Part shown: positions 5,783-40,617 of the stretch, piece after piece
Numbering within the stretch: the first letter of the stretch is position 1
Layout of the letters: each line of letters begins with the position of its first letter
Assembly (NCBI GenBank): GCA_963663405.2
Contig: CAXXSM010000006.1
Span: 1-40,835, forward strand
DNA: 40,835 nucleotides
Reading direction: 5' to 3'
DNA from: a bacterium
GTDB lineage: Bacteria; Hinthialibacterota; Hinthialibacteria; Hinthialibacterales; Hinthialibacteraceae
Notes under the pieces: generated by a model
Database searches by the model: none
What the model was told of the DNA's origin: nothing
The model's input: the letters and a program-made list of their open reading frames with translations, nothing else
Program-made: the position numbers and the translations under genes

Positions 5783-5795
5783 AGGAGAAAAAATC

Positions 5796-10465: not shown

Positions 10466-10474
10466 GAGGGAATC

Positions 10475-12624: not shown

Positions 12625-12702
12625 TGAAGTGCCCCCCAAAATTCGGACAGTGGTTTAAGGTGGAAATCCGCCGAGTCGACAACTTGACTTGGAGGATTGA
12701 TC

Positions 12703-21700: not shown

Positions 21701-22771
21701 ATTTTAATTTATCCAGCACACACACAAGTTATCACAGAACGGACACCAACCTTTGTTTGGAATATTTTTAATTTTACCTATAATGGAAATCCTGTTGGAG
21801 TTTCAAATTATTGCCTCGATTTAGAGATCCCAAGCGGTGAATTATTTTCATTGTGGGATATTCCTTGCGATTATACGAGCGAACAATACTTTGCACATTT
21901 GTGGTGGAATCATAAGTTTGGATTGTATACATTTTTGCCTCCACTCCCAACGGGAAATCATACATTGAACCTAGGAGCATTCCAAAATATTGGCACCGGA
22001 TTTAATTTTTCTGCAAATCGAACAATTCAATTTACTGCTCCGATTGCTGAGGATATCAATAATGATGGATATGTTAATATACTAGATTTAGTAATGATTA
22101 GCATTCATTTTGGGCGACAAGTAAACGATGGACTCAATCCTATCTGGACATTCATCGGGGATGGCTCTATTCCAGATAGATCAGATGTAAATAGCGATGG
22201 AGTAGTAAATATATTGGATATGGTTCGAGTATCAATTTCTTTTGATAATGACCAGGCATTTGAAATGGACACTTATATCAATGCGAATTCAACGGATACC
22301 ACGAGTGGACAAGACACTGTTTTGGTAGTTCACTCGATAGGTCCATCCGTTAGTGGAAGTCACGTGCGTACTTTGATGCAGTTTAATGTCAATATTCATT
22401 CACCTAATTCTTTAAGTGCGATAATTAAAATCCGACTTGCTCAAGTTGATCATCCCGGTAGTGTTAAGCTGTATGGATTGGAAAAGGAATGGGATGATGA
22501 GTGGGCATCGTGGAACACTCGCATGGAGGGAATTAACTGGGAGATTCCTGGAGGAGTTTTTGATACTGACAACAAAATAACAGAGGTTCATTCGGATACG
22601 GCTAATGAAAATGGTTGGATGTCATTTGACATTACTCCATTATTTAAAAAATGGGTAAATGGGGATTTGACAAACTATGGAGTCATTCTTTATCCTGGCT
22701 CATTAGACGTTAGATTAGAATTTGATTCAATGGAATCTTCTAATCCACCCTATCTTGAAGTTACGTATTAA
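18680..22771 (+). CDS. Secreted multidomain protein: C-type lectin, two LRR blocks, one HxWWNH repeat unit, internal dockerin-like tag, C-terminal DNRLRE-like domain
   Basis: Signal peptide; GGHLVAINDQAENDWI; 21-aa (63-bp) LRRs NQLTSLDVSNNTAL..L.C; duplicated INTPENFPD cap; DTYIN...SFDITPLFKKWV..NYGVIL..PYLEVTY. Confidence 0.9.
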   Translation: MERLRFITGLSLIFCFTLSSLVYSTEWYTNPANGNQYTVHTNSTSWQTAEEWAVSQGGHLVAINDQAENDWIVDTLLPEFSNTQLLWIGLYKDNGVYNWVNGEPVIYTNWHPTQPDSDNLTVLDTDPNRGPGLWWSISTGTRSSIIEIASGGPYETPTPLNTPIPIDTPTPIPEPYINTPENFPDPNFLNRVESFMGGDFTEAQAAVKTGALYCQGYNIRSLIGIEYFTSIHDLYCGDNQLTSLDVSNNTALEKLWCFDNQLTSLDVSNNTALESLYCHENQLTNLDVSNNTALIDLRCHVNQLTSLDISNNTALEYLVCSQNQLTSLDVSNNTALRYFWCEGNQLTEISSLVSNSGIGSGDEVDVSYNNLTCDDWDDILILKNRIGAGFVYSPQNGLYPFDCNNNINTPENFPDANFRSTVENFMGVPPGGDFTAAEAASKTGILDCSNLGIFELDGIEFFTGIQNLWCNHNHLTNLDVSYNIAMTELKCYFNQLTNLDVSHNYSLISLYCDNNQLTGLDVSNNTVLNTLYCGVNQLTSLDLSGADSLKSLWCFNNKLTNLDVSNNPELIDLKCYFNQLTNLYVSHNTALIALYCGDNQLISLDVSKNSNLNELWCVNNQLNSLDVSNNIALKTLRCDWNQLTSLDVSSNIALTELWSFENQLTSLDISNNIDLKYLHCYSNQLSTLDLSNNTDLIELKCYSNPLSSLDISKNTSLVFLHCYDSQLTHLDISNNSDLCLLWCFENQLTSIDVSNNISLKYLRCERNNLTEISSLVSNAGLGSGDEVDVSYNDLTCDDWDDILTLQSRIGSGFVYSPQNGLDPFDCTSVETPTPEPTLIPTPYPTPELFPYIEDANVNVGYNVYHNNGQIDSSYKFGLKIDAFGEFSEMQTSDVTLMANGTSLNLDYIDVSLRDIIEDSASPIAKEVAGNPEDASKNLESVDIPIVLGDQILNTLQVTEPNFYIIKAGGIFENNPILGEYVVDVRDSSDTTASHIIGTLLDYPQDAPILIYPAHTQVITERTPTFVWNIFNFTYNGNPVGVSNYCLDLEIPSGELFSLWDIPCDYTSEQYFAHLWWNHKFGLYTFLPPLPTGNHTLNLGAFQNIGTGFNFSANRTIQFTAPIAEDINNDGYVNILDLVMISIHFGRQVNDGLNPIWTFIGDGSIPDRSDVNSDGVVNILDMVRVSISFDNDQAFEMDTYINANSTDTTSGQDTVLVVHSIGPSVSGSHVRTLMQFNVNIHSPNSLSAIIKIRLAQVDHPGSVKLYGLEKEWDDEWASWNTRMEGINWEIPGGVFDTDNKITEVHSDTANENGWMSFDITPLFKKWVNGDLTNYGVILYPGSLDVRLEFDSMESSNPPYLEVTY
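22049..22246 (+). repeat. Dockerin-like module, copy 1 of 6 (198 bp)
   Basis: EDINNDGYVNILDLV...DVNSDGVVNILDMVRVSISFD. Confidence 0.88.
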
Positions 22772-22841
22772 ATGCACTAATCGAACACACTCGAACAGTA
22801 ACCTAAGGTTTATGGATATCTTATCATGCTATTATATCGGC

Positions 22842-23225
22842 ATGGGAAAATCTAAAGATATCAAACAGAAGATCCTTGTCGGCCAACACCGGCGGACGTG
22901 GGAATGGTTTGGGATCGTGCGGGAGTCGGATGGTAGCCAGTCTAAGAATTACGGACCGTTCAAATCCGCGAAACATGCAGAGGCAGTGATTCGGAAGGTT
23001 TGGGGGATTCCGGGGGAAGTTGAGACTAAAATGAATCCCTGCACCGGAATTACGATATTGTTGAGCATTCCGGTGACTTTAACCGCCTTCGATGGTTGGA
23101 TTCATTGCTTCATAATTGTTATCATTTCCATCATGTCCTGTTCAATCGCGTTTAAGTTTAAGAAAAAACTCGATTTCTATCCCATGAAATCTCAGAAAAA
23201 AGCCATCCCTACCGAGACGTATTAA
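22842..23225 (+). CDS. Hypothetical protein, copy 2; 1-base insertion near 23034 extends its C-terminus
   Basis: Direct DNA repeat of ~16480-16860. Confidence 0.55.
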   Translation: MGKSKDIKQKILVGQHRRTWEWFGIVRESDGSQSKNYGPFKSAKHAEAVIRKVWGIPGEVETKMNPCTGITILLSIPVTLTAFDGWIHCFIIVIISIMSCSIAFKFKKKLDFYPMKSQKKAIPTETY

Positions 23226-23341
23226 TAACAATATTGTCAACTGCTTATCGGTGGACCGATTCTTGGATAATAGCTACATGTGGTCCGATCCAAGCCAAAC
23301 TGGGTCATTCTTTATCCTGAAAACCTCAATGCAATAAATAT

Positions 23342-23782
23342 TCAATCAAATGCGATGGACACGCGGACCATATCCAGAATATTGACTACGCCGTCATTAT
23401 TCACATCCGCTTTGTCGGGGATGGAGCCATCGCCGATGGATGTCCAAAGTGGAATGAGACCATCATTCACTACCCGGCCAAAGTGGATACTAATTAATAC
23501 TAAATCTAAAATATTGACAAAGCCATCGCCGTTGACGTCCTCCTCTTTCACTTCCTCAAAATAGAGTTGTCCGATAAATCCAGTATAAATGACAGTCTGT
23601 CCACTTCCGGAGGATGAGGTTCCCCCGGTCTCCAGCGCGGCGAACATCGACACCGCGCCCCCACTTGAGGCTTGCGCCCCCGATCCGATCCCGCTGGGAA
23701 CAATCTCCGTGTCGGCTTGGGCGCCGAATGGGAAGAGTGAAATACATATTAACAAAGTAAGAAGCATTCTTTTTGTGTACAC
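23342..23782 (-). CDS. Small secreted Gly/Ser-rich protein with C-terminal dockerin-like tag (copy 2, 23345-23542)
   Basis: AGGAG RBS before GTG 23782; signal peptide ending AQA; tag EDVNGDGFVNILD... Confidence 0.82.
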   Translation of the reverse strand: MYTKRMLLTLLICISLFPFGAQADTEIVPSGIGSGAQASSGGAVSMFAALETGGTSSSGSGQTVIYTGFIGQLYFEEVKEEDVNGDGFVNILDLVLISIHFGRVVNDGLIPLWTSIGDGSIPDKADVNNDGVVNILDMVRVSIAFD

Positions 23783-24094
23783 TTTTTTTCTCCTATAATC
23801 TTTTATGAAAGCCAGGACTCTCATCCGCGCCATCAAAAGTAATCCTCGCGGTTGCTCGATCTTTATGTGATTCAAACCATCAAAATCCCGCGCGAGCTGG
23901 GGAGATATATCTCCCCAGCGCCCCTCTCCGGTTTCTGAACTCCAAATCTTTCCCTCTACCACCGTTCATTCCATCTTCCATGAACGGGCGGACGCCGGCT
24001 GCCGCTTCGCCGCCGCCCGTCCATTCCAGATTCCATTCTCTACCTATTCCGTTCTCCGAGTTTTCTCCCTCCAAGCCCTATAGGGTAAAAGCAC

Positions 24095-26356
24095 TCAAGG
24101 GTAAGACCTCAGGAGCCGGAAGCCAATGTAGTTGTAGCGGTAGCCGGGCGAGTCGTGGCTGCGATCCGCTGACCGGCAGTTCCTGGCGAAGTTAATCCAA
24201 CTGCCACCGCGAAGCACACAGTTCGAGCCGGTAGTAGGACCGGTTGGATCGATTTTATTTTCAATGGTATAATACGTGCTACTATACCAATCATTACACC
24301 ATTCCCAGACATTTCCACTCATATCATATAGGCCCCAGGCATTTGGTAGTTTTAAACCGGCTTCCTGTGTTTGTGACGATGAATTACTATTATACCAAGC
24401 GTAATCCCCAATCTCCGTATAACTCGGATCATCCCCCCAATAATACCGCGTCGTAGTTCCCGCCCGGCACGCGTTCTCCCATTCCGCCTCCGTCGGCATT
24501 CGATAGCCATCCGCTTCGTAATCTATCGCCCACGTTGATAGATCATACACAGGCGTCCTTCCCTCCATCTCACTTAAGCGATTGCAAAATCGCGCGCAAT
24601 CATACCAATTCACCTGCTCCACCGGATGATTGTTTCCACTAAAACCCGAAGGAGTAGTACTGATTCCCCATGGATTCCCAGCCATCACCGCCACCCATTG
24701 CGCCTGCGTCACCTCATACTTCCCCATGTAATAATCTTTCGTAATCATTACACCATGCTGGGGTTTTTCCCAATCAAACGCATCCGGATCGCTATCCGGG
24801 CTTCCCATTTTGAATACACCCGCATTTATATTAACCATCTCAAGTGGTTTGGCGCCCGCTGCCAGATTGGGTAGATTTACCGTAATCACATCCCATCCAG
24901 ATGGCCATTTCCCTTTCACCGAATCGGCCACTTTCGCATGGTCTGCATCTGTAGCCTGATCCGCGCTTGCCGCATGACCTGCGCTTGCCGCATGACCTGC
25001 GTTCGCCGCTTGATCGGCATTCGTCGCTTGATCGGCAAGATCGGCATGATCGGCATCTTTCGCTTTGAATGTATCGGCGGTTAATGTCCCCGTGACCGTA
25101 AGATTCCCAACATCAGCCGTCCCCGATACATCCATATCTCCGTGAATAAACGTCCCACCATTGGCGCGAACCACGAACTGGTTTTCGCCTGTGGATTCAA
25201 TATCCGCGTTCGTGCTGTCACCCCAGACAAAACTGCCATCGTGCAACGCTTTCGCCCTTCGGCCAGCCGCGAAACTTAAGCCTCCTTCAGCAGTGTTGCT
25301 TAATCCTCCAGGGACGGTTCCATAATTCCCACTTGCGGTGTTGCCCTGTCCTCCACCGACGGTGGCTCTCGAACCTGAGGATGTATTCCAGCCTCCACCC
25401 GCGACGTTTCCATACTCACCTTCAACCGTGTTATCAATTCCACCCGCGACGGTTCCATAATTCCCACTGGCTGTATTGCTTTGTCCTCCACTGACTGTGG
25501 CTCTATCACCGGATGCGGTATTGGTAAATCCCCCTCCTACGGTGGAATCAACTGCCCCTGCAGTATTCTGCCGGCCACCACCGATGGTTCCATAATGGGC
25601 GGTCACTTGGTTGAGTTGTCCTCCCTGTCCGCCCCCACTAATAGTCGCGCCCCACATACCATCTGTGACACTGTTTCCAGAATTCCCAGCAATAACATTA
25701 GGTGAAATAGATTTCGGTTCCAGCCGCATCACGCGTTGACTGTTCACGTGTAGTTCCAGCGCCTGGTTATCTGTCGTCCCCAGAAAATCAGTTCCGGGCG
25801 TGGTCCCCGCGTTGCCTGTCAGCCCCCAGAGCGTTGTGATATCGAAACCGGTTAGCGCGTCCGCCACATCGGCGTGATTTGATGTGGCTGCTTGATCCGC
25901 TTCCCCCGCATGCGCCGCTTCCATCGCATAGCCGACAACCAGAATCCGCTGATCGGTCGAGAGTTGCTCAAACGTCTCAGCAGGTGGAGGAGTAGAACTG
26001 AACCAGACCCGCAGATAGACTTCCGGATAACTAAACACATCCGGCGTAATCTCATCATCCATGTTGGTCAGACTGGTGTCTCCCAATCCGAGCGAGAACA
26101 ATCCCTCATTCACAGAAAGCGAGACCGCGTTCCCAGGCTCTACATTCGTCCCGGACGTCCCATCGTTGCTCCACAAAATCAATCCTGTTGAATCCACCAA
26201 AGCGAATTTGAAATGCCCTGTTCCATCATAGGGCGATCCATTCACCATCACTCGTCCCTGGTACCCCATAATCCCCGGTACCGCCGCGCCTGCTAAAGAA
26301 ACCAAAAACATGGAAACAAAAAAACCTGTGATGATACGAATCGTTCTCTTAAACAT
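24095..26356 (-). CDS. Secreted fibre/adhesin-like protein with C-terminal FGE-sulfatase (CLec-fold) domain; probable DGR target
   Basis: Signal peptide, YQGR N-terminal domain, 14-aa GGG..NTA.G repeats, Ala/Asp/His stalk, FKMGS, KYEVTQAQW, RMPTEAEWE, GLYDMSGNVWEWC, RGGSW...GFRL. Confidence 0.9.
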   Translation of the reverse strand: MFKRTIRIITGFFVSMFLVSLAGAAVPGIMGYQGRVMVNGSPYDGTGHFKFALVDSTGLILWSNDGTSGTNVEPGNAVSLSVNEGLFSLGLGDTSLTNMDDEITPDVFSYPEVYLRVWFSSTPPPAETFEQLSTDQRILVVGYAMEAAHAGEADQAATSNHADVADALTGFDITTLWGLTGNAGTTPGTDFLGTTDNQALELHVNSQRVMRLEPKSISPNVIAGNSGNSVTDGMWGATISGGGQGGQLNQVTAHYGTIGGGRQNTAGAVDSTVGGGFTNTASGDRATVSGGQSNTASGNYGTVAGGIDNTVEGEYGNVAGGGWNTSSGSRATVGGGQGNTASGNYGTVPGGLSNTAEGGLSFAAGRRAKALHDGSFVWGDSTNADIESTGENQFVVRANGGTFIHGDMDVSGTADVGNLTVTGTLTADTFKAKDADHADLADQATNADQAANAGHAASAGHAASADQATDADHAKVADSVKGKWPSGWDVITVNLPNLAAGAKPLEMVNINAGVFKMGSPDSDPDAFDWEKPQHGVMITKDYYMGKYEVTQAQWVAVMAGNPWGISTTPSGFSGNNHPVEQVNWYDCARFCNRLSEMEGRTPVYDLSTWAIDYEADGYRMPTEAEWENACRAGTTTRYYWGDDPSYTEIGDYAWYNSNSSSQTQEAGLKLPNAWGLYDMSGNVWEWCNDWYSSTYYTIENKIDPTGPTTGSNCVLRGGSWINFARNCRSADRSHDSPGYRYNYIGFRLLRSYP
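24098..24232 (-). other. DGR variable-region-like segment
   Basis: NNC/NNT codons at canonical AAY positions in a GC-rich frame; no matching template repeat in the window. Confidence 0.6.
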
Positions 26357-26396
26357 TCCGTGCTCTCCTTAAAATTAAGATGTTCTTATCAATACA

Positions 26397-26441
26397 CAAA
26401 AAGCCGGACCACTTCAAAATCATTTGAAGGCGGCCCGGCTA
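26397..26441 (-). terminator. Intrinsic terminator (riboswitch expression platform)
   Basis: AGCCGGGCCGCCTTCAAA-TGAT-TTTGAAGTGGTCCGGCT-TTTT on the minus strand. Confidence 0.8.
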
Positions 26442-26506
26442 TCTTTTCTATACCAAGATCCGTGGCTTTCCGTCCCTATCTCTCGATAGGTTTGGCTTTA
26501 TCTAAA
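26427..26506 (-). ncRNA. Cyclic di-GMP-I (GEMM-I) riboswitch
   Basis: Minus strand AAAGCCAAACCTATC-GAGA-GATAGGGACGGAAAGCCACGGATCT...AGATAGCCGGGCCGCC: P2 with GNRA loop, GGGACGGAAAGCC core, P3. Confidence 0.88.
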
Positions 26507-27036
26507 TTACCGAAACAATAAAATTATAATACTATATATATAGATTTACGTATATATAATAATATGAGAAAGAAAAGAGATTAATTTTACCACTTAAAAT
26601 CAACATTTGTCAATACAAAATCAGAAAAATCATAAATAAATAAATATTTTTGCAATATATCGTTACACAGTTTTTTTGATCAATTGAAACAAAAAAATAA
26701 GATATTTCTCTTTCAAAAAAATCCAGCCTTTAATCCGCTGTTAACATTCCTTATATTTATCCAGATATACCTGTAAGAAATAAAACTATAAATTCAATTA
26801 TTTATATTAAAAGACTCTCCAATTCTACAAAGTTTTATGAGTATGTCTATCGTGAATAGTCATGATTTTGAATGGCAAAAATCGCTAGTTACACTAGCTG
26901 TAACTGCTAGTAATGAATGTTAAAATTTGGGAGGGATTGATAGATTTAAAGGATGCAAATGAGAATCATAAATATTTATAAAGGTTTGAAATGGTGTAGG
27001 TTACGTCTTAGTAGTTCATGTAAAACTTAACCGAAT

Positions 27037-29958
27037 TCAATCAAATTTGATCGCTACCCGGACCATATCCAGTATATTAACCACCCCATCATCATTCACA
27101 TCTGCGCGATCCGGGATTGATCCATCCCCAATGGACGTCCAAGAAGGATCGAGTCCATCATTTACTTGGCGTCCAAAGTGAATACTGATCAGAACCAAAT
27201 CCAGGATATTGACGTAACAATCATTATTTACATCTTCAACAATAGGCGATCTACAAAGCCTGAAATAATCGTCACTGACATCCCATATCTTTTGATTCCA
27301 ATCGAATCCAAACGGATTGAATATGTATACCGCGCCTGAATTCGCTGCATTGTTGTCATGTCCACTTGCCCCTACAATGACACTGCTCTCGTACGTAGAA
27401 ATCGATATCCCGAGATGATCACCTGCGCCAATATCAGATGACATAATTTTCGTTTTATAATTCCAACTATTTCCCTCTCTCATAAAAATGTATATCGAAC
27501 CCGCATCGATTCCCAAAGCGTCAGTCTCAGGCGCGCCAATCGCCGCGATCTCTCCATACAACGCCACAGAATGACCAAAACGATCTCCTCCCGACGCATC
27601 GATAGCCAGTAATTTATCTTGCTGAGTCCATGATACGCCGATGCGAGTAAACACATAGGCGGAGCCTGAATCATCACTTACATCATCATTGTTACTCGCT
27701 CCAATTATTACGGTGTCATCGTATATCGATACGGATTCCCCGAAATTATCACCTTCAGAAGCGTCATCAGCCGTTAATTTCGCTTGTTGAGACCACGTCG
27801 TTCCATTACGAGTGAATACATAGGCTGAGCCTGACATGGGGCCTGCGTCATCATCATATGGAGATGTAGCGACAATGGTGTCTCCTGAAATGGAAACGGA
27901 GTAACCAAAGCCGTCTTCCGAAACTGCGTCGATAGGGATTAATTCCGCTTCTTCGATCCATTCAAGTCCATTCCAGATGAATACATAAACCGAACCAGCA
28001 TCCATTCCAGCGTTATCATTCGTAAAGGCGCCTACAACGATCGTATTTCCCGATATTGCGACGGAACTACCAAATCCGTCTCCCGCCGTTGCATCGCTGG
28101 CCACAAGTTTTGCTTGCTGAGTCCAGGCAGCGCCGTTCCAGGCAAAAACATAGGCCGATCCAGATTCTGAACTCATGTCCACTGTGGGGGCTCCAGCGAC
28201 AATCAAATCATCGTCTAGCGCCACGGCGGCTCCAAAGAAATCATCCTCCGCTGCGTCATCAGCCAATAACTTCGCTTGGATTTCCCATTCACTATTTTGT
28301 TTAGAAAATACATATACCGAACCGGCGTCCGGACCCGCGTCATTGTCATACTTCATCCCTGCTACAGCGATGTCTTCCTCAATTGTTACTGATCCACCAA
28401 ACTGATGATCGCGCGCCGCGTCCCCCGCTGTCAATTTTGCTCGCTGGTTCCAAACATCAATTTTTCTCTCGAATATGTAGGCAGTTCCCGCATAAATACC
28501 CCCATCGTCATCCGAATGTGCTCCTGCAACTATCGTATCTCCATAAATAACATGTCCACCAAATTGGTCTCCGGCTTCAATGTCGCTTGATAACAGTTTT
28601 GCTTGTTGAGTCCATGTACTACTATTTTTCACAAATACATACGACGCTCCTGAGTTTTCACCGATCCCATCCTGGCCATTAGCAGCAACTACTACAGTGT
28701 TTCCGGAAATGGATATACGACCTCCAAATTCATCCGCTTCATTGAGATCATCTGGAGATAATTTCGCTTCCTATACCCAGGAATTGCCGTTATTTGCAAA
28801 AATGTAGGCCGATCCAGAATTCTCACAACTGCCATCATTATGAGGAGAGCCAACCGCTATGAGATCGTCATAAATTGATACTCGCGCTCCAAAAAAATCC
28901 ATCGTAACACCGTCAGATGCCTTCAGTTTTGCTTGTTGATTCCAACTCTCACCATTTCTCTCAAACACATAGGCCGCTCCGACCCAAGCATTATCTCGGC
29001 TTCCAATAACCGCTATGTTATTCCAAATCGAAACATCCTGCCCAAAAAAATCTAATGTATGAGGATCACTCGCTGTTAGTTTTGCTTGTTGACTCCAAGT
29101 ATCTACATTTCTTACAAACACATAGGCCGATCCGGAATCTTCAAATACGTCATCATCAAAAGAGGATCCTACAATAATAGTATCTTCATAGATTGATACA
29201 GATTCTCCAAAATGGTCAAATTCAGCAGGATCACTGGCAATGAGTTTCGCTTGTTCCGTCCAAATACCACTATCTTTCACAAACACATAGGCCGATCCAG
29301 AATACGTTCCTCCATCATCATCTTCTTCAGCCCCTATGACAATGGTATCTCCATAAATCGCTACAGAACTTCCAAATTGGTCGCTTATAGCAGCGTCACT
29401 TGCAGTTAATTTTTGATATTGAATCCACCCCATCCCTTTTTTTATAAATACATAAACTGCGCCAACATCATTATCACGATGTGCGGCTATCACAACAGTA
29501 TCTCCATAAATTGCTGTATGCCTTCCAAACATATCATAATGATACGAATCGCAATTGCCATGAACGAGTTTTGTCTCTTCATGAGCAATAGCAGAAATTT
29601 CAATGGCGCATAGTGTGGAGGATATATCGGGTGTCAACCATGGATAACTGTTCAATCCAGGGATAGTTGTCACTGCGCGCTCTATCGTCTCCCAGGACAC
29701 CATTCCATCCGCGCTAAACATGAGATCAACTGAGCTTATTCCGCCTGTACATAGATATTCAATATCATTTACTGTATTCCCATCCCAAAATTCTCCTCCA
29801 TCAGGCGCGATGATTTGAATCTCCGGTAATATCTCCATAGAAGCTGTGTCAGTATCCGATAATCCCACATTAATGAAAGTATTCATAAATACAAATGTTA
29901 AACCAATTATAGCAATTCGGATATTTGCTTGTTTAAACATGATCGTTCTCCTTTCCAT
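27037..29958 (-). CDS. Secreted FG-GAP beta-propeller protein with C-terminal dockerin-like tag (copy 3, 27040-27237); interrupted by an in-frame TAG at 28771-28773
   Basis: Repeats of W.QQAKL.ASD....D.FG.SV.I....IVVGA..DD....GSAYVF; the two track ORFs share a frame and the sequence between them encodes an intact repeat. Confidence 0.85.
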
Positions 29959-29986
29959 AATTCAGGCAGAATTTGTAAAACGAGAT

Positions 29987-31594
29987 TCAATCAAACGCAA
30001 TAGACACACGAACCATATCCAAGATATTGACCACTCCATCATCATTCACATCCGCTTGATCCGGTATTGAGCCATCCCCTATGGACGTCCAGGCAGGTTC
30101 GAGTCCATCGTTCACTTGACGGCCGAAATGGATGCTGATGACGACTAAATCTAAGATATTAACAACTCCATCATTATTGATATCTTCTGGAATAGGGAAT
30201 TCGTACTGTAAGGCATTGTATGCGTTGACAAGCCCGCCAGTTACTGTTTTTCCATCCAGCGATGGAATTGGGCGAACTGTGTTTAAAATCACATCTTTTA
30301 TCTCTTGGTATGACCGATCTGGATGCTGGGCATACACCAAAGCGGCGACACCGGCCACGTGGGGTGTCGCCATCGATGTGCCACTTAGATAAATATAAGG
30401 GGGGAATCCCTTATTCAAATAAGTGGGACATGTACTTCCGACATATACTCCTGGAGCGCCAATATCTACACTGGTTTCGCCATAACAGGAAAACGAGGCC
30501 ATGTTGTCTTTATTGTCCGTAGCAGCCACAGATATGATATTGTCCAGGTCGTATGAGGATGGATAGACCGGTTGGAGATCGTTGTCACCATTGCTGTTTC
30601 CAGCGGCGGCGATGAAAAGATGCCCGATAGATTGAGACGCTTCTATCGCGTCGTAGAGCGCTTGGGTATGTCCACCAGACCAACTGTTATTTGAAACTTT
30701 CACCCCCATCATTACCGCATAATCGATCGCTTTAACCGCATAACTGGTATATCCACCATTAGGTCCCATCATCCGGAGAGGCATAAGTTTACAATTCCAC
30801 AAGACTCCCGTTACGCCTTCTTCATTATCTCCTACAGCGCCTATTATGCCAGCGACATGTGTGCCGTGATATTCGTCTGGAAGCCACGGTCGATTCCAAG
30901 GAGATGGATCGTTATCCCCTTCAAAAAAATCCCATCCATTTACATCGTCCACATATCCGTTATCATCATCGTCAATTCCGTTATCCGGGATCTCATTCGG
31001 ATTAACCCAAATGTTCGCTGCCAGGTCAGGATGTTCCATCTGGATTCCCGTATCGAGAATCGCAATCACAGTATTTGGATCTCCAGTGGAGATTGTCCAC
31101 GCTTCCGGAGCGTCGATATCCGCATCGGGTACACCCTCGTTGGCTGGTTGATCGGGGGGAATTGTCTGCCCCGTGTTATGTAATCCCCATTGCAGATCAA
31201 AATAGGTGTCATTGGGAATCAATGGAGTCGGCTCACCAGGATCTGATTGGATGAAATAATCGGGTTCTGCGTATTCAATAAATGGAAGATTACTTAACTT
31301 CTCTATCGCCTTCTCTACATCAATTCCGGTTATCTTGATATGTTCCAGTCCAGGAACAATCTTATATCCCTTAAGTTTTTTACCACCAACCAATGTTCTT
31401 GCAAGCGTCATATTCTTTGTTAAAATGTTCGTCTTGAATCGGACGAGAATGGAATCGGAAGCGAATTTAATACGAGTATTCTTATTAGATTTCTGCAACA
31501 TCTGGGATTGCGCCTTCAGCGCACATGTACATACGAATGCTATTATCGATAGTATTAGGATATGAGGATAATAACGCTGAAGACAGTATCTCAT
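29987..31594 (-). CDS. Secreted S8 subtilisin-like protease with dockerin-like tag (copy 4, 29990-30187)
   Basis: Triad ILDTGI / YHGTHVAG / GTSMATPHVAG, AAAGN oxyanion motif, propeptide YAEPDY. Confidence 0.94.
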   Translation of the reverse strand: MRYCLQRYYPHILILSIIAFVCTCALKAQSQMLQKSNKNTRIKFASDSILVRFKTNILTKNMTLARTLVGGKKLKGYKIVPGLEHIKITGIDVEKAIEKLSNLPFIEYAEPDYFIQSDPGEPTPLIPNDTYFDLQWGLHNTGQTIPPDQPANEGVPDADIDAPEAWTISTGDPNTVIAILDTGIQMEHPDLAANIWVNPNEIPDNGIDDDDNGYVDDVNGWDFFEGDNDPSPWNRPWLPDEYHGTHVAGIIGAVGDNEEGVTGVLWNCKLMPLRMMGPNGGYTSYAVKAIDYAVMMGVKVSNNSWSGGHTQALYDAIEASQSIGHLFIAAAGNSNGDNDLQPVYPSSYDLDNIISVAATDNKDNMASFSCYGETSVDIGAPGVYVGSTCPTYLNKGFPPYIYLSGTSMATPHVAGVAALVYAQHPDRSYQEIKDVILNTVRPIPSLDGKTVTGGLVNAYNALQYEFPIPEDINNDGVVNILDLVVISIHFGRQVNDGLEPAWTSIGDGSIPDQADVNDDGVVNILDMVRVSIAFD

Positions 31595-31649
31595 TTACAC
31601 TTCCTCCGAATGATTTAGATAAAGCGACTTCAAAAGTATCCTACTAACT

Positions 31650-33590
31650 TCAATCAAACGCGATTGACACACGAACCATATCCAGTACATTGACAACTCC
31701 ATCATCATTCACATCCGCTCGATCCGGGATGGAATCATCCCCTATTGACGTCCAGGAAGGATCGAGTCCATCGCTTACTTGGCGGCCAAAATGAATGCTG
31801 ATTACCACTAAATCCAAGATATTGACAACGCCATCATTGTTAACGTCTTCCGCATATTGTTTTAGTGTCAGACGGCCGGATCCAAAAAGGTTGTCTTTCC
31901 CTGGATCCCCTAAATCAACCGCCCATTGCTCGAGGAGATTTTGATAATCGGTTAATGAAAGATGTGGATATCGAGACATCAATAACGCCGCCGCACCCGC
32001 CACGTGAGGTGTCGCCGCTGAAGTGCCGCCTAGAACTGTTAAGATTTCTACAGAGACATCCGTCGGCCCACAAAGATCTGGTTTGATCCTTCCACCTAGC
32101 GACGGGGGATCGCCTCCTGGGCCATTGGTAGGTCCTTGCGAACTATACGATTTTAAAATCCCATTTTCCCATTTATCTTTTCCAATGGCTCCAACAGAGA
32201 TTGCTGTAGGTGAATTCGCGGGATTGATCAAACTCCCCGGTTTGATGTAGTAATTCATGTTTTGTGGAAAACTGAATAGTTCGAGATAACATTCGGGAGG
32301 AACGGGATCGTTGGATTCAATCCGTATCACATACCAACTATCGGATGGAGCGATCAAAGAAATCTTTTCTGTTGGTTGCTGACCGGAATAACCGTTTTGA
32401 GGATTATTCGAGACAGCCACTTCATGATAACTTTTATTGATCGAATCCCATTCCAATAATCGAAGTTCCAAATTAATCGTACAATTCGTCCAATCATTCC
32501 AACTGAGATATACGTCGATTCGATCGTCGGCTTTTGCCTGGATAAAGTTATCGGCGGAATTTCCATCCCCAGCCGGATTGGGATTTTGAAAGTCATGCAT
32601 ATAATTTGAATTCATTGCATACGGATTTGACTCCGAAATTTCAGTAGGGAAAAAAAATCCTTCATAATGTCTTTTAGCCATATTCCCCGCAGCGGTTACC
32701 CATAAGATTCCATTTTGCCGGGCATGATCAATGATATCACAAATCGGTCCAGTCCCATCATAAGGCCCTTCATTCGCCCATCCAACTGAATACGAGATGA
32801 TATCCACTTCTTGATCAATGAGCCAATTTACGGCGGCTCCCAGTTCAACAATCGTTTCGCTGTTCACTAAATATAATGTCGAATCCGGCGCCATATCATA
32901 GACAATTTCCGCGCATGCGGTACCATGATATGTACTTCCTGGAAAGACACCATTTTCCCCAGATGGATCACCATAAAAAGATTTGGTGATAAGACCGTTG
33001 GGTAAATCCGTTCCCAATAAATTTTCATAGCCGTGAAAGCCTTCATCAAGAACAGCGATTTTTACACCTTGCCCGTTATATCCAGCAATATGATATTCAT
33101 TGGCTTTGGTCAGATCGACTCCTTCGCTGATTGCGAAAGAGATCGGAGTGTTTGGAGTTTTTATATAAACGCCGGGTAGATTCGTGATACGATCGAGATG
33201 GATTAGCGGAATTTTAACTTGCAGAAAATGATTGTACGATCCTTCTACTTTTACACCAAGAGATTGGAGTGATATTTCTAGTTCTTTTGTATTACTCTCT
33301 GTGTCCACAACGATAATGATAGCAATCATCTCTCCCGGAAGGATGTTCCAATCCATTTTTCGCGGCTGTGTTTTTGAATAGGAATTCTGTTTGTGGAATT
33401 GCTCCAGATTCCACAAATTCCAATCTAATTTTAAATTGATTTCTGTTTCGTATTGATTATTATCGCCTTCTAATAATTTTTTAATGGTGGCCCCAGAATC
33501 ATTCACTCCATTAATTCGGGAAAATGAGATATCATCGATTAATAAAAGAAGAAAAAATAGAACTAAAATTTTTTTTATAGTGTTATTCAT
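31650..33590 (-). CDS. Secreted S8 protease with inserted domain and dockerin-like tag (copy 5, 31653-31850)
   Basis: AVLDEGF / YHGTACAE / GTSAATPHVAG, KPDLCGP; start moved to ATG 33590 (signal-like MNNTIKKILVLFFLLLL). Confidence 0.9.
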   Translation of the reverse strand: MNNTIKKILVLFFLLLLIDDISFSRINGVNDSGATIKKLLEGDNNQYETEINLKLDWNLWNLEQFHKQNSYSKTQPRKMDWNILPGEMIAIIIVVDTESNTKELEISLQSLGVKVEGSYNHFLQVKIPLIHLDRITNLPGVYIKTPNTPISFAISEGVDLTKANEYHIAGYNGQGVKIAVLDEGFHGYENLLGTDLPNGLITKSFYGDPSGENGVFPGSTYHGTACAEIVYDMAPDSTLYLVNSETIVELGAAVNWLIDQEVDIISYSVGWANEGPYDGTGPICDIIDHARQNGILWVTAAGNMAKRHYEGFFFPTEISESNPYAMNSNYMHDFQNPNPAGDGNSADNFIQAKADDRIDVYLSWNDWTNCTINLELRLLEWDSINKSYHEVAVSNNPQNGYSGQQPTEKISLIAPSDSWYVIRIESNDPVPPECYLELFSFPQNMNYYIKPGSLINPANSPTAISVGAIGKDKWENGILKSYSSQGPTNGPGGDPPSLGGRIKPDLCGPTDVSVEILTVLGGTSAATPHVAGAAALLMSRYPHLSLTDYQNLLEQWAVDLGDPGKDNLFGSGRLTLKQYAEDVNNDGVVNILDLVVISIHFGRQVSDGLDPSWTSIGDDSIPDRADVNDDGVVNVLDMVRVSIAFD

Positions 33591-33624
33591 AATTTTGTAA
33601 ATTAAATGAATGACTTTTTTTAAA

Positions 33625-33664
33625 TAAAAAATCAAGGGGAGAGATAATAGACCTCCCCCCTTGA
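33625..33664 (-). terminator. Intrinsic terminator after the cohesin gene
   Basis: CAAGGGG...CCCCTTG stem followed by a T-rich tract on the minus strand. Confidence 0.7.
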
Positions 33665-33713
33665 TAGTGAGTACTATTCAATTCGAACAAGATTTAGATT
33701 TTATGGATTGAAT

Positions 33714-34881
33714 TTAAGGCACGGCCACACAATCCTCAACAATTCCCATATCAACGAGAATTAAATACAGCCAATATGGAATTTCCACCAAATTCACCTG
33801 ATCGCCGCAGTCAATGATAATTACGATAGGAAGAGTCGGATCCGATTCATATGGAAGTAAGAACCAATTCATCGTCACGTATTCATAAATCTCTATAACA
33901 ATAGCAGGATCCCATGTGATTCCTCCGCCTTGGTAAAAACCAGCGTCCCAGGGGAATCCGTTGAAGAGCAACATCCAAATCACCGCTTGGATTTCATTGT
34001 TTGTTGCGCTTAACATAAATGGCAATTGTGGTAATTGAGAATTGTATCTATTGCGATATAACCACAAAAGATAATTAACAAGCGGGAGGTTTTGTGGATT
34101 CCCGATTAAGGGGCAATCTTGTACGGTGAGAGAGGAATAGCATCCGACATTTTGATACCACCAACCCAGTTTGATATTTGTATCGATATCCGCGCACCAA
34201 CCAGGATATATTGTGTCTCCACCCGCGGCCAACGTGGGAGTAAACCAAGCGTCAAAATAACCTAGAACACCCGGCCAATATTTACCGCTGCCATTCCCCT
34301 GCCCATCACCATTCACTAGGTAATCACGGTTGACGTCATTGCCAGTAGAGACATTGATGGTCGTATTTTCAAGCGAAACACCTGGTATCGCATTACCGGA
34401 CGAATCGGATATCAGGCAACCTGTTGGGCCGTAGGGGGCCAAAAGAGATTTCAGAAGAGTAATTTGTCGAACTTCCAGATATTTCCCGAAAACGAATGGA
34501 TACTAAATCTCCAGAAGCAGTAACAGGCACAATACCAACTTCACCTAAAGGATAGATTTTGTTGCCATTCACGAGGGTTGCAGGAGGAATTATAAATATT
34601 GGAAAAGATAAACCCGAAGGAAAAATTCCTGAATTCGTATGACTTACATATTCGAATTTGGAAGAATCGAAAAATATCTCTAATTGATATCCTCTCATCA
34701 ATTCTTGACTTTCCAAATGCACTACGACATCGAATTCATCACCCAGTCCTATGTTTTGACTTGGAGGCTGAAGTGAAAGGGTTGCCGTAGTCTGCGCGGA
34801 AACATCGTTAACGCCCCATCCGCAGATGAAAAGCAAAAGACTGCTCACAAGTACTACTTTCACACGGTTGTGTCTTTTCAT
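33714..34881 (-). CDS. Secreted cohesin-like domain + putative thioester-domain protein; one extra base at 34434-34438 splits it into two ORFs
   Basis: AAGGAG RBS, signal peptide; LSLQPPSQNIGLGDEFDVVV...GYQLEIFFDSSKFEYVS...SGDLVSIRFRE...ISF(GPY)...ISDSSGNAIP cohesin pattern; GWCAD...IQAVIW...DQVNLV. Confidence 0.7.
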
Positions 34882-34930
34882 TGCCCTATCTCCTTTTCTG
34901 TAAAAAAAAAAAGAATTTATTAAACGAGAA

Positions 34931-37900
34931 TCAATCGAACGCGATCGATACTCGCACCATATCCAAAATATTGACGACTCCATCATCATTCACATCCGCT
35001 TGATCTGGAATGGATCCATCGCCGATGGAAGTCCATAGAGGAACGAGTCCATCATTGACTTGACGGCCGAAATGGATACTGATCAAGACCAAGTCTAAAA
35101 TATTGACCACTCCATCGCCGTTGACATCCTCCGCTCTTGCCAGAGCGCACTCAAATTGAATGTTACGATTCGCCGAGAAACTAAATCCTGCATCCACATT
35201 TTGATACGCGCCCAAATTCAACGCATGGTTCCCCGAAGGCAATGGCTGCAATAGTTCTTCCTGTTGATTGTTGTGATTCCACCACAGATGCGCGTCATAC
35301 ACCTCACTCGTCTGTCCAGCGGGGATATTCCACAAGGAATAGAATTGCCCATCAGACATGGCAAGATCCAAACAATAATCCGAAACACCAATAGAATTCC
35401 CATTATAGGTGAAGTCGAATGAATTCCAAGTGAACGTTGGCTCCTGCTCAGAAATAATTTGAGTGTGAACCGGGTACGTTAAACTAGGCGCGTCTTGAGG
35501 ATAATCTAGCAACGTCCCAATCGAGTGAGCCGTAGTCTGACTACTGTTATCACGAACTTCTACAATGTATTCACTTAAGATTGGAGTTCCAATAAATTCG
35601 CCTCCAACATCGATGTGGTAACGATTACAGCCATTTGAATAAATATTGAAATTGTCAAGATTCAAATCATTGTCACCCACGACCATGACTCGAATATCAC
35701 TTATTTGCATACTACTGAAATCACCGATGACGTCGACTGATACTCCAAAATTGTACCAAGAATCGACTTGACCATTGTGATGGTTTACATTGTAGCTAAT
35801 GTTCATGTGCGCATTCGAGATATCCGGATTCGTCTCCGCAGACTGGAATTGAATATACCTAGTCGTTGAGAGACTGAAATTAGTATCAACATCGCTATGC
35901 GCACCAAGGCTCAAGCCGTGGCTGCCCACTGGCAGTGGTGGAAGAAATTCATCCTGTTGCGTATTGTGATTCCACCACTCATGATCACTATATCCCTCAA
36001 TCATTTGCTCATTGGGAATCCACAGCCCATATCCATCCCCATTATATATGTTCAGATTGAGAGAGTAATTCTGTGCGCTTAGCGAATTCCCACCGTAAGT
36101 GAAACTATACATATCCCACATGAATCTTGGCGTCTGGTTAGTGATCAACTCACAATGTGTTGGATGAATCAAGTTCGGGGCAGTTTGTGGATAGTCTATC
36201 AGGGTTCCAATGATGTATGAAGTAGTTTGATCACTACTGTCACGCACTTCTACTACATACTCGCCGAGAACCGGGATACCTGAATACGATCCCCAGACAT
36301 TGATATGATAATTGTCGCATCCTTGTAAATCGACGTTGAGACTCCCGCTTTCTAGGTTCAATACGGTTCCGTCTGCCAGTATTGTGATATCACTAATATC
36401 CATCCCGCTAAAATCACCGAGTGCGTTCACCCATAAACTAAATTCATACATTTCATCAACTTGGCTGTTATAATGGTTGACGTAGTAATTAAGATTAACT
36501 TCTGCGCTCACGATATCCGGATTGGTCTCCGCATATTGGAATTGGATGTGCTGGTTCGTCCAGAAACTGAAGGGCGTTCCTGTGTCCAAATGGACGCCGA
36601 TATTCATGCTGTGGCTGCCCACCGGCAACCGCGGCAGGTATTCGTTCTGTTGCGTGTTATGGTTCCACCACTCGTGATCCCCATATCCTTCACTCGTCTG
36701 CCCGCTGGATACCGATAGACCGTACCCATCCCCATTTTGAATCCACAGATCGAGATTGTAGTTCTGAAAACTGGCTGGAGTTCCGTTGTAACTGAAACTG
36801 TATGCGTCCCAGGTGAACGTCGGAGTCTGGTTCGTGATCAACTCGCAGGGCCCTGGATAGGTCAAGTTCGGCGCGTCCTGCGGATAATCCACCAGCGTTC
36901 CGATCATGTATGATGTGGTTTGATCCGCGTTATCCCGCACCTCCACCACATACTCCCCGAGAATCGGATCGCCCGCGTACGGCCCCCAAATATTGATATG
37001 GTAATGGTTGCACCCCTTGCTGATCAGCGCTGAAACTATTGCCGTCCAGGCTCAACGGCGTTCCATTCGCTGTCACGGTGATGTCACTTGAGTTCATCCC
37101 GCTGAAATCCCCTATCGCATCCACCCAAACATTCAATCCGTATGATGTGTTCAGCTGGCTGTTCCCGTCGTAATTGACGTCACAGTTGATATGAATGTTC
37201 GAACTTGCGATGTCCGGATTCGTCTCTCCGTACTGGAATTGTATGTACCGGTTTACCCAGAAATTGAAGGCTCCACCAGTATTCAAATAAGCGGCCAAGT
37301 TTAAGTTGTGTCCCCCTACCGGCAACGGTGGCAGATATTCATTTTGCTGCGTATTGTGATTCCACCACTCATGATCTCCATATCCTTCGCTCGTCTGCCC
37401 GGCGGATACCCAAAGGTTGTACACGTCCCCATTATAAATACTCAGATCGAGTGAGTAATCTTGTACAATCAGCGGAGTTCCATCGTAAGTAAAACTGTAC
37501 GCATCCCATGTGAACGTGGGTGTCTGATTCGTAATCAATTCGCAGTGCGTGGGATACGTCAGATCCGGCGCCTTCTGTGGGTAATCCACCAGCGTTCCAA
37601 TCGTATACGATGTGATCTGATCCACACTATCCCGGATCTCTACGATATACTCTCCTAATATCGGATCCCCCGTGTATGGAGCCCAGACATTGATGTGGTA
37701 ACTGTTGCATCCATTGGAATCGATGTTGAAACTATCGCCGTCCAGGCTCAGTGGCGTTCCATCCGCTGTCACGGTGATATCACTCACATCCATCCCACTG
37801 AAATCACCGATCGCGTCCATCCATACATAAAACCCGTATGATGTGTCTACTTGACCTTCATGATGGTTCACATAGTAATCAATATTAACATTCGCGCTGA

Positions 37901-40617
37901 CAATATCCGGATTCGTCTCCGCATACTGGAATTGGATGTAGCGAGTCGCCGAGATAGTAAAACCATTGTCAACATTTGTATGCGCACTCAGTTCCAAACC
38001 ATGATTTCCTACAGGCAGCGGGGGTAGTAACTCATCTTGCTGAGCATCATAATGCCACCACTCATGATCTCCATATCCTTCGCTCGTTTGCCACCAGGAA
38101 GATTCAGGCCGTACCAGTCTCCACTGTTTATTTCCAGACCGAGCGAGTAGTCCTGAACGCTCAATGGAGTGCCATCATAAGTGAATCCATACGCGTCCCA
38201 CGTAAACGTTGGCGTCTGATTCGTAAGCAAGTCACAATGCGTGGGATGTGTCAAATTCGGCGCGGATCGAGGATAATCCTCCAACGTTCCAACCGTGTAT
38301 GAAGTTGTCTGATCACTGCTATCCCGTATTTCCACCACATACTCTCCAAGAATCGGCTCACCCGTATATGACCCCCAGGCATGGATGTGGTAACTGTTGC
38401 ACCCATTGGAATTGACTTCGATACTGTCGAAACTCAAATCCGTATCGCCAACTACACTCACTCTTATATCACTGATATCCATCCACTGAAATCACCGATC
38501 GCATCCACCCATGCATAAAATACATATGACGTGTCTATCTGGCCATTATAGTGATGAACGTGGTAATCAATAATCATATTCGAATCCACAATATCCGGAT
38601 TCGTCTCTGCAGACTGGAATTGAATATGTCGCGTCGCCCAGAAACTGAAAGCGCCGCCCGTTTCCATGAAAGCGCCCAGGCTCAAGCCGTGATTACCCAT
38701 TGGCAACGGTGGCAGGTATTCATCTTGTTGGGTGTTGTGATTCCACCATTCGTGATCCCCGTATACTTCGCTCGTTTGTCCGCCGGGAATCCATAGGTTG
38801 TATCCATCCCCGTTATAGATACCCAGGTCGAGTGAGTAGTTCTGCACGCTCAACGGATTCCCATCGTAACTGAATCCATATGCGTCCCAGGTAAAGGTTG
38901 GCGTCTGGGTCGCGATCAATTCGCAATGCGTAGGATACGTCAAATTCGGGGCGGTTTGCGGATATCCTAATAACGTTCCTAAAGAGTGTGAATCCGTCTC
39001 GAAATCATCATCTATGATAGAAACAATATATTCACCTAAGTTTGGATTGCCTGTATAAGATCCCCATACATGGATACCAGCATCTCCACCATTGATTTCG
39101 GTTTCGACTCCATCAATGTTTAAAACATCAACACCAACAGTGAGGGTAATATCACTTGGTTCAACATCACTAAAATTACCGGACGCCTCAATGTAGAGAT
39201 CAAAATTATATATATTATCAACGGAACCATTATAATAATTTTCATTGTAGGAAATAACAAAATGCGCATCGTTTATTGCGGCTTCCACATTTTCGCGGAC
39301 AAAAATATCTGAATGGTTATTGGTATCATTAGGAACTAGGTTAAAAGATCCTGATTCAAAAGCGATGTAACGCCCATCCGTTGAGATGGATGGTTCATAA
39401 CTCGAACCATCTCCTTGGTTGCTTAAAGAATCGACGCTGGCTAAGGTAGTGATCCCTGTTTGGCAATCATGAACAAAAATATCCCTATAATTTGTATCAT
39501 TAGAAATTAGATTATTAGCCTCTGATTCAAATGCAGCATAACGTCCATCCGGTGAGATGGATGGATCAGTACTATTTCCATTTCCTTGATTTCCCGATGA
39601 ATCGACACTAACACGAGTTGTGGTTCCAGCTTGGCAATCGCGTATAAAAATATCATTTTGACCGTTCGTATCTCCGGTGACTAAATTGTCTGCAATGGAA
39701 TTAAAGGCAATGAAACGCCCATCCGCTGAAATGGATGGATAATCACTTCCTCCGTTCCCCTGATTTCCAGAAGAATCGACACTCACTAGAGTTGTAGTCC
39801 CAGCCTGGCGATCGCGAACAAAGATATCACATTGACCATTCGTGTCATTCGAAACAAGGTTAGAAGCACGTGATGCAAAGGCGACATAACGCCCATCCGC
39901 TGAAATAGATGGATGATAACTGGCTCCATTACCCTCAATTCCTGATGAAGAAATACTCACTCTTATTGTGTTTCCCGTCTGACAATCGTGGACAAACACA
40001 TCATATGCATTATTCGTGTCGTCGACAACGAGATTATTAGATAGAGAATAAAAGGCGGCATAGCGCCCATGCTCTGAGATGGAGATCAAACCTCCTCCAT
40101 CGCCCCCTCCACGATCTCCTTCGGTTCCAGAAGAATCAACACTGACTCGAGTTGTGGATCCTGTCTGACAATCGTGAACGAAAACATCTGGCCAATTATT
40201 TGTATCTCCGGATACTAGATTATCAGCAAGTGATGAAAAAATAACAAAACGCCCATCCGCCGAGATGGATAGAGATGAACAGTCCCCATTCCCCTGATTT
40301 CCAGAAGAATCGACACTGACTCGGCTTGTAACTCCTGTCTGGCGATCGTGCACAAAAATATCAACATGACCGTTCGTATCATTTGGAACAAGATTATCTG
40401 CAAAAGAAGCAAAGGCGACATAACGTCCATCCGCTGAGATGGATGCGTACATGCTTCTAGAATCCCCTTCACTCCCCGAAGAATCGACGCTGACTCTAGT
40501 AGTCGTTTCCGCTTGAATATCCCCAGGCATAATGAATGCCCATATACATGCGATGATAAGAATAATCCGTGAACGAGACGCTTGAATTCGAGACAATCCC
40601 ATTTTGATGGAAGGCAT
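34931..40617 (-). CDS. Giant secreted protein (~1900 aa once repaired): TolB/PD40-like propeller, six tandem ~230-aa repeats, dockerin-like tag (copy 6, 34934-35131); three 1-base frameshifts
   Basis: PSISADGRYVAF.S.A.NLV..DTN...DIFV.D repeats; the four track ORFs join when indels at 38483, 38091 and 37013 are corrected against sister repeats. Confidence 0.85.
35140..39280 (-). repeat. Six tandem ~690-bp repeats
   Basis: Anchor TCCGGATT(C/G)GTCTC recurs near 35823, 36516, 37213, 37906 and 38594. Confidence 0.88.

Follow-up and report, generated by a model that had tools for sequence, protein, structure and literature searches.

The stretch of DNA analysed here (contig CAXXSM010000006.1, 40,835 nt; hereafter the window) is the entire contig C6 of a metagenome-assembled genome (MAG) of an uncultured diderm bacterium from the candidate phylum Hinthialibacterota, which amounts to 8.44 Mb in 170 contigs and is 82% complete. 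The right half of the contig is an island of genes for secreted proteins. Six of these proteins share a dockerin tag of 66 amino acids (aa), and among their genes lies one for a putative adaptor, composed of a signal peptide, a probable cohesin and a C-terminal thioester domain (TED). We read the tagged proteins and the adaptor as two parts of a system that may tether secreted proteins covalently to a surface. Coordinates and domain scores of all features are given in Table 1.

The six gap-free tags, first proposed in an initial annotation made from the sequence alone, were borne out both by a six-frame scan of the genome and by the Pfam family Dockerin_1 (PF00404; cut-off 22.9 bits), which all six proteins exceeded with 26.7-35.3 bits. 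A regular expression applied to the six-frame translation of the whole 8.44-Mb genome returned the six window tags and exactly one more, in a leucine-rich repeat (LRR) protein on contig C55 that likewise scored above the cut-off (25.7 bits). Aligned with one another, the seven tags need no internal gap and reach a mean column identity of 88%, and each contains both Ca-loop repeats (DxNxDGxxNxxD), with D1, N3, D5, N9 and D12 invariant. Chance likeness between the tags is excluded at the level of their sequences, and we class them as conserved type-I dockerins. Positions 10/11 are IL in both repeats, as had been noted, with VL as a single exception, and positions 17/18 are SI in both. Dual-mode binding goes with such repeat symmetry, according to the titles of the PDB entries 2vn5 and 2vn6.

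The tags differ from ordinary dockerins in the spacing of their repeats. Each Dockerin_1 match covered 61 residues against 51 model positions, indicating that the inter-repeat linker is about 10 residues longer than in the Pfam model; the genome's 11 other dockerin matches span 38-53 residues and do not contain the linker motif. Dockerins in general are nothing unusual in the lineage, as PF00404 matches occurred in all 34 same-class relatives searched. The tag profile had no match in 19 genomes of the same family and one weak match among 40 relatives. No close relatives of the long-linker tag were found in genome contigs (best identity 48%) or in metagenome contigs (best 43%). Of the 78 tag-relative loci retained from genome contigs, 70 were titled Candidatus Poribacteria, at identities of up to 48%, and open reading frames (ORFs) beside such loci matched our genome at up to 68% identity. 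Judged by these searches, the long-linker dockerin is a strongly conserved subtype private to this genome. The tags are 72-85% identical in DNA and differ by 18-31 synonymous and 5-11 non-synonymous codons of 63, linker included. The low DNA identity and the excess of synonymous changes argue that they are old copies under purifying selection rather than recent duplicates.

The adaptor gene had been described as a cohesin gene ending at a frameshift. We found that it does not end there: after a +1 shift the gene continues into a C-terminal TED, which was missed because the earlier reading stopped at the shift, and which alters the most likely role of the system. A read-through built with the step CCCC=P gave a 388-aa protein (P0006) with a signal peptide at residues 1-30, a cohesin at about residues 31-179 (nt 34344-34791) and a TED at about residues 182-388 (nt 33717-34337). 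The cohesin ORF itself extends from 34393 to 34989, and ATG 34881, which provides the signal peptide, is its most likely start. The stretch that follows the frameshift (…ISFGPYGPTGCLISDSSGNAIPGVSLENTTINV) resembles the final cohesin strands.

We compared a model of the cohesin region, predicted with AlphaFold 2 (AF2; pLDDT 59, pTM 0.61), with solved structures. Foldseek returned 57 matches at E<=1e-3 with cohesins first, the best being 6kgf_A (E 3.8e-7, TM 0.72/0.75). In a VIA-wide comparison with 48,161 chains, the top 15 entries were all cohesins (Z 11.3-13.2, root-mean-square deviation 2.3-3.6). The alignments took in 127-142 of 152 residues within the range 1-151, and thus included the stretch after the frameshift; pilin-type sandwiches came next behind the cohesins, at Z 11.2 and below. 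Of 30 matches in the ESM Atlas, 25 were cohesin clusters (score 0.93, 175-177 shared features). No competing Pfam family was found for the region, and NCBIfam returned nothing for the ORF. The expectation that the region 34440-34800 folds as a cohesin, with its nine-stranded beta-sandwich, thus holds, with moderate confidence, in so far as the model matches solved cohesins first with both programs, and the gene at about 34340-34881 probably encodes a cohesin.

A HMMER search of 1.84 billion representative proteins with the second half of the adaptor identified 33 TED relatives, 32 of them besides the query. All nine full-length close homologues end in the domain and have no other anchor after it. 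Two relatives passed the cut-off of the Pfam TED family (PF08341; 22 bits), namely P0020 with 22.5 bits and P0023 with 24.3 bits; a third, P0024, remained below it with 20.5 bits. All three match the window TED at E 1e-10 to 1e-7, so the link to Pfam is transitive only. The candidate cysteine of the window TED aligns to C211 of P0020, within the Pfam match of that protein. A PDB sequence search with the adaptor read-through returned nothing. A structural link came from an AF2 model built on a 30-sequence alignment (pLDDT 81.1, pTM 0.79): the top 10 Foldseek matches were all TEDs (5a0g, 4c0z, 5a0l, 5a0d; probability 0.97-1.0), and VIA-align gave Z scores of 8.2-10.1 over 140-170 residues for ten TED entries, with the next unrelated entry at 3.5.

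According to an excerpt of PMC6194298, the bond-forming Cys of TEDs lies in a [YFL]C-Phi-zeta motif, the bond-forming Gln is on a late strand, and a TQXX-Phi-W motif sits beside the bond. The window TED has counterparts of all three, in WCAD (C229), IQAVIW (Q298, W302) and GDQVNL (Q361, in a predicted strand). These residues are conserved in the family, C229 and Q298 each in 27 of 28 sequences, W302 in 28 of 28 and Q361 in 26 of 27. The residue before the Cys is W in place of Y, F or L, and distant family members have F, Y or W there. The motifs of a TED are thus present in the adaptor and, on the strength of the model, so is the TED fold of a beta-barrel with a three-helix bundle; a Cys229-Gln361 thioester is predicted from the motif positions. 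The Gln of IQAVIW was also considered as the bond former and was dropped, since the same excerpt (PMC6194298) places this motif next to the bond and assigns the bond-forming Gln to a late strand. Further cysteines are kept in the family, in '.DC.L', in 'IDCGDQ', where some copies have Thr instead, and close to the C-terminus, at a distance of 2-5 residues; these may form disulfides.

Most of the TED homologues proved to be proteins of the same genome (100% matches). A local hidden Markov model found 17 ORFs at E<1e-29, rising to 24 at E<1e-3, and a single-protein search gave 20 matches, which puts the number of TED copies in the genome at about 17-20; among 40 relatives, the TED query had one weak match (E 9.8e-4) and no more were found with this query. 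In the genome, TEDs cap the C-termini of an S8 subtilase, LRR proteins, a PD40 propeller, an FGE-sulfatase/caspase giant and PKD proteins. Kinds of protein that carry the dockerin tag in the window thus carry a TED elsewhere, and for four of the six tagged cargo types the closest paralogue beyond the window has a C-terminal TED. The second S8 subtilase of the window is 52% identical over 565 aa to P0008 (C132:22631-25102), and the two split right after 'GSGRL.L..Y' into a tag or a TED. With P0015, a PD40-TED protein on C85, the window PD40 propeller shares 60% identity over 443 aa. The window LRR protein has its nearest outside paralogues, all ending in a TED, on C149 (61%), C27 (51%), C55 (49%) and C111 (48%). 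Finally, the N-terminus of P0002, which has the order N-module-PKD-TED, matches the N-module of the small tag protein at 65% identity over 71 aa, and the paralogues of the small protein on C36 and C110 end in a TED.

The seventh tag lies in a similar setting. Three LRR genes stand in tandem at C55 2450-7844; the long-linker tag closes one of them and a TED the other two, and the trio is flanked by a phage portal gene and several transposases. The LRR-tag gene is 55% identical to its tandem LRR-TED neighbour, and the swap occurs after SPQNGL.PF.C.

A two-gene cassette, consisting of an FGE-sulfatase gene and a gene for a small N-module protein, occurs three times in the genome, at window 23342-26356 (-), C36:79910-84174 and C110:4088-8562. 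Its second gene ends in PKD and TED on C36 and C110, and in the dockerin tag in the window. The paralogues of the window FGE-sulfatase protein (C36:79910-82636, 66%; C110:5281-8562, 63%) adjoin the N-module-PKD-TED genes C36:83056-84174 and C110:4088-5290. We also noted a second neighbourhood with a cohesin and a TED-like ORF. At C85 2529-12379 there is a gene for a 2784-aa protein with half a dockerin, TIG, beta-helix repeats, PD40 repeats and a C-terminal cohesin (25.6 bits), and about 500 nt downstream of it lies a 326-aa ORF with a weak match to the TED family.

Since the same kinds of cargo carry either the tag or a TED, the dockerin-tagged cargo together with the cohesin-TED adaptor appears as a split, exchangeable version of a direct cargo-TED fusion. 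The initial annotation had proposed a cellulosome-like multi-protein complex. This was not borne out: the adaptor gene provides one cohesin, and a single cohesin cannot scaffold a complex of that type. One cohesin, a C-terminal TED and no other recognisable anchor rather suggest a monovalent covalent adaptor. We therefore propose that tagged cargo and adaptor form a split covalent tethering system, a reading to which we assign a probability of about 50%. The two parts may be produced together, as the PD40-dockerin gene and the adaptor gene are separated by 50 nt and a strong terminator-like hairpin lies behind the latter, which suggests that they are co-transcribed. A look for RNA data among the listed sequencing runs found none.

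In the proposed mechanism, all parts would be exported by Sec, and the dockerin of a cargo protein would plug into the cohesin in a Ca2+-dependent manner; with IL at positions 10/11 and SI at positions 17/18 of both repeats, docking could take place in either orientation. The internal Cys229-Gln361 thioester of the TED would then react with a surface nucleophile, leaving the adaptor covalently bonded. Tagged proteases, LRR and lectin binders and propellers would in this way be fastened, one per adaptor, to whatever the TED targets. Candidate targets are the cell's own envelope, in which case the adaptor would be an anchoring scaffoldin with a covalent anchor, or material of a host, prey or particle. 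The single parts of this system are well supported, whereas binding of tag to cohesin, formation of the thioester and the target are all inferred here. An attack on cells or protein particles, as initially suggested, is speculation. We put forward only tentatively, as a possibility we would sooner doubt than affirm, the broader idea of a natural 'universal covalent socket', through which interchangeable tagged proteins would be irreversibly bonded to the surface of a host, of prey or of the producing cell.

The tag could alternatively be a Ca2+-binding stabilising or sorting module that does not bind a cohesin, with the TED proteins acting independently of it. In 2009 Peer et al. reportedly described many non-cellulosomal dockerins without a known partner, and such dockerins are treated as possible adhesins in an excerpt of a paper on Omnitrophota (PMC10066038). 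A gene with a cohesin fold, however, follows one of the tagged genes directly, 50 nt downstream, and the replacement of the TED by the tag at the identical junction in paralogues fits tethering better than a folding aid. We thus regard a stabilising or sorting role as very unlikely.

A number of observations weigh against the split tethering system. For the cohesin, PF00963 gave 20.4 bits with the ORF (E 6e-4) and 19.2 bits with the read-through, in both cases below its cut-off of 24.1, so that the cohesin-like gene of the initial annotation is upheld by the predicted fold and by the ESM Atlas and not by the family profile. The fold model is of low confidence, and since the four other rows of its alignment were all cohesins, the predicted fold may be biased. 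Profile comparison by hhalign with four cohesins of the same genome gave a probability of only 11.5%. A word-index search of 5.8 billion proteins (lengths 213-679 aa) for a homologue returned only the window's own ORF, and phmmer on the six frames of the genome found no cohesin paralogue. For the TED, the 242-aa ORF after the frameshift had no Pfam match (E<=10) and none in NCBIfam, and a PDB sequence search with the profile of the TED family gave chance matches only (E>1). With regard to the swaps, neither the FG-GAP nor the fervidolysin-like S8 cargo has a TED paralogue in the genome. Five of 22 TED ORFs lie less than 5 kb from a dockerin or cohesin match, compared with a mean of 0.65 under random placement (P about 0.0008), and 4 of 21 do so once the window contig is left out (P about 0.005); this co-location speaks for the system, but may only reflect the clustering of surface genes. 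The contig is also atypical in tetranucleotide composition (correlation 0.915, the sixth lowest of 59). Despite this and its mobile genes, it is linked to this genome by paralogues of window genes, which lie on more than 10 other contigs of the MAG.

At least ten other cohesins of the genome lie above the PF00963 cut-off and are possible real partners of the tags. If the tags dock onto these, the result would be a multi-protein surface complex of the kind initially proposed, and the cohesin-like domain of the window would have another partner or none. Consistent with this, two of the 10 PF00963 matches lie within one 898-aa frame on C21, several proteins hold both a dockerin and a cohesin, and the window cohesin is the weakest member and a sequence orphan. 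The tag subtype and the orphan cohesin, however, are neighbours, each of them private to this genome. In 19 same-family genomes the tag profile had no match, and the genome's 11 other dockerins have the ordinary short linker. Docking of the tags onto other cohesins is thus quite unlikely, and we favour the adaptor as their partner.

The last group of adverse observations concerns the integrity of the genes. The FG-GAP gene consists of two ORFs in the same frame ('NSWV*EAKL'), interrupted by TAG at 28771-28773; in the PD40 gene, frameshifts near 38480, 38040 and 36950 leave four separate ORFs; and the adaptor gene has the +1 frameshift in a C5 run. Because three genes are affected, the system may be decaying, and the island might be a former cohesin-dockerin/TED system whose genes are now pseudogenes without function on a contig rich in mobile elements. 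In support, the PD40 gene contributes three frameshifts, the cohesin-TED gene a fourth and the FG-GAP gene the TAG, which makes five lesions within about 13 kb of coding sequence, and the left half of the contig is full of mobile-element genes.

We checked the lesions in Logan contigs, an independent assembly of a sequencing run that contains the locus at depth 2-3, in which the PD40 region is barely covered. At the FG-GAP lesion, one Logan contig ends at 28772 and the next starts at 28774, and the uncovered base, 28773, is the first base of the stop. At the cohesin lesion, one ends at 34437 and the other starts at 34435, each flank having four of the five C's. No Logan contig bridges 28773 or 34434-34438. 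Breaks of this kind at both lesions are the pattern that a de Bruijn graph gives at a single-nucleotide polymorphism and at a C4/C5 length variant or error. The two checked lesions are thus not secure, and an intact allele may exist; because of the low coverage, the contig consensus is uncertain in general. The coincidence of both checkable lesions with contig ends argues against decay, as do the large excess of synonymous over non-synonymous changes in all tags and the four of seven tagged genes that are intact. Taken together, a decayed island is an unlikely explanation, and we retain the split tethering system as our reading.

Table 1. Features of the window discussed in the text, with positions of the tag copies and Pfam scores in bits
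Feature	Position	Strand	Dockerin tag	Description
Mobile-element genes	1-13813			D5-type primase-helicase, SSB, AAA ATPase, ArdC-like anti-restriction/zincin protein, two tyrosine integrases, IS91-family transposase, ParA, IS3-type integrase/transposase
C-type lectin-domain protein	14153-16183	-		676 aa; C-type lectin in two stretches, 79 bits
Secreted LRR protein	18680-22771	+	22049-22246	C-type lectin (18680-19100, N-terminus; Lectin_C 39), 2 LRR blocks (LRR_4 101), one 230-aa module, tag (Dockerin_1 26.9), CBM96-like C-terminus (CBM96 43)
230-aa module of LRR protein	21100-22040	+		One copy, before the tag
Small tag protein	23342-23962	-	23345-23542	Dockerin_1 35.3
FGE-sulfatase-domain protein	24095-26356	-		FGE-sulfatase 178; without tag, without TED
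FG-GAP_2 propeller gene	27037-29958	-	27040-27237	Signal peptide; internal TAG 28771-28773; FG-GAP_2 419 + 264 (two ORFs), Dockerin_1 26.7
S8 subtilase, fervidolysin-type propeptide	29987-31594	-	29990-30187	Peptidase_S8 198, Fervidolysin_NPro-like 28.8, Dockerin_1 29.5
Second S8 subtilase	31650-33635	-	31653-31850	Peptidase_S8 98, Dockerin_1 31.5
Terminator-like hairpin	33631-33665	-		15-bp stem, T tail, about 50 nt past the cohesin-TED stop
Cohesin-TED adaptor gene	33714-34881	-		Signal peptide, probable cohesin, TED; +1 frameshift in C5 run 34434-34438
PD40 propeller gene	34931-40617	-	34934-35131	PD40 propeller, six 230-aa modules, tag; PD40 81, Dockerin_1 32.4
230-aa modules of PD40 gene	35135-39600	-		Six copies

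Pfam agreed with the cargo as initially listed, namely two S8 subtilases, an FG-GAP_2 and a PD40 propeller, an LRR protein with a C-type lectin domain, and a small protein. It also agreed on the lack of a glycoside hydrolase (GH) in the window: none of the 29 window ORFs scanned matched a GH family, and the only carbohydrate-related matches were CBM96 and C-type lectin domains. One detail was corrected, as the tag of the LRR protein is internal and the CBM96-like domain lies behind it. Met 23767 is the likely start of the small tag protein, whose N-module of about 50 aa then stands between a signal peptide and the dockerin tag. C-type lectin domains, which have a eukaryote-like fold, are found both at the N-terminus of the LRR protein and in a separate 676-aa protein.

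The PD40 gene has six sets of hallmarks of a module of about 230 aa (...TPTFTWD..., ...HEWWNH...), spaced by about 690 nt, and a further copy precedes the tag of the LRR protein. The module matches no Pfam family and has no paralogue outside the window; in the ESM Atlas it matched unnamed clusters only, with a recognition value below the threshold.

The left half of the contig consists of mobile-element genes, and the island of secreted-protein genes may ride on, or adjoin, an integrative element or plasmid fragment. We sought a terminal overlap between the contig ends and found none; circularity is thus not supported.

If the proposed reading is true, bacteria would possess an evolved, modular means by which many secreted effectors share a single covalent anchor, and the genome records an evolutionary exchange between direct TED fusion and plug-in docking, in which the dockerin-for-TED swaps at the same junction are a natural experiment on functionally equivalent modules. 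Thioester-domain chemistry would also reach a diderm candidate phylum, rather than being confined to Gram-positive bacteria, and a cohesin protein would have a third, covalent means of anchoring, beside SLH (S-layer homology) modules and sortase. The locus would point to how uncultured bacteria of this kind could fix proteases and eukaryote-like binders (LRR, C-type lectin, FG-GAP) onto the surface of a partner. As a ready-made two-part tether, with a non-covalent plug and a covalent hook, it would be of interest to protein engineers. If the lesions are real, the locus would be a snapshot of such a system being lost.

Cohesin-dockerin pairs and TEDs are each well known; we found no record of their combination. 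A literature search for cohesin, dockerin and thioester domain together revealed no cohesin-TED protein and one general review, taken by its title only; a search on dockerins and cohesins of Poribacteria gave nothing relevant, and none of the 21 TED-family homologues scanned contains a cohesin. The cargo itself has precedents. According to excerpts of the respective papers, the dockerin proteins of Ruminococcus flavefaciens FD-1 carry 28 LRR and 16 peptidase modules (PMC2930009), and Clostridium thermocellum has an S8 protease with a double dockerin (PMC12484212), so that cargo outside the carbohydrate-active enzymes (CAZymes) is already known on dockerins. Those systems, however, are genuine cellulosomes, with many GH-dockerin proteins and multi-cohesin scaffoldins. 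The window locus has one cohesin, and contains neither a multi-cohesin scaffoldin nor dockerin-borne GHs or other CAZymes.

The closest parallels on the cohesin side are the single-cohesin anchoring scaffoldins OlpA and OlpC of C. thermocellum, in which one type-I-like cohesin on a tether takes single dockerin proteins. Their type-I cohesin-dockerin complexes (3ul4, 4dh2) were among the top fold matches of our model, at Z 12.3. OlpA and OlpC are anchored by an SLH module, which binds non-covalently to the Gram-positive wall. Here, in contrast, a TED stands behind the cohesin, the host is a diderm, no GH is among the docked proteins, and the dockerins have a linker longer by about 10 residues. 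The non-cellulosomal cohesins of Archaeoglobus fulgidus (2xdh) and Clostridium perfringens (2vo8, 2w1n) are alike in being used outside plant-cell-wall degradation, and 2xdh and 2vo8 match the cohesin model at Z 12.4. Non-cellulosomal cohesin and dockerin modules are reportedly the subject of a 2009 study by Peer et al.

On the TED side, the window domain resembles the Class I TEDs of Gram-positive TIE adhesins, namely SfbI (5a0l), Cpa (4c0z/2xi9) and CpTIE (5a0g/5a0d), in fold (Z 8.8-10.1), in the three motif positions, in its size of about 200 aa and in having no beta-sandwich insert. It differs from them in the lack of a sequence-level match to solved TEDs and in its diderm host. TEDs are described as modules of Gram-positive surface proteins in excerpts of PMC6194298 and PMC9210967, and as forming the distal end of sortase-anchored proteins in the former (PMC6194298). 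In the adaptor, by contrast with the TIE adhesins, the TED forms the extreme C-terminus and is followed by no sortase anchor, and in this genome TEDs are fused to a cohesin, subtilases, LRR proteins and PD40 propellers rather than to isopeptide stalks.

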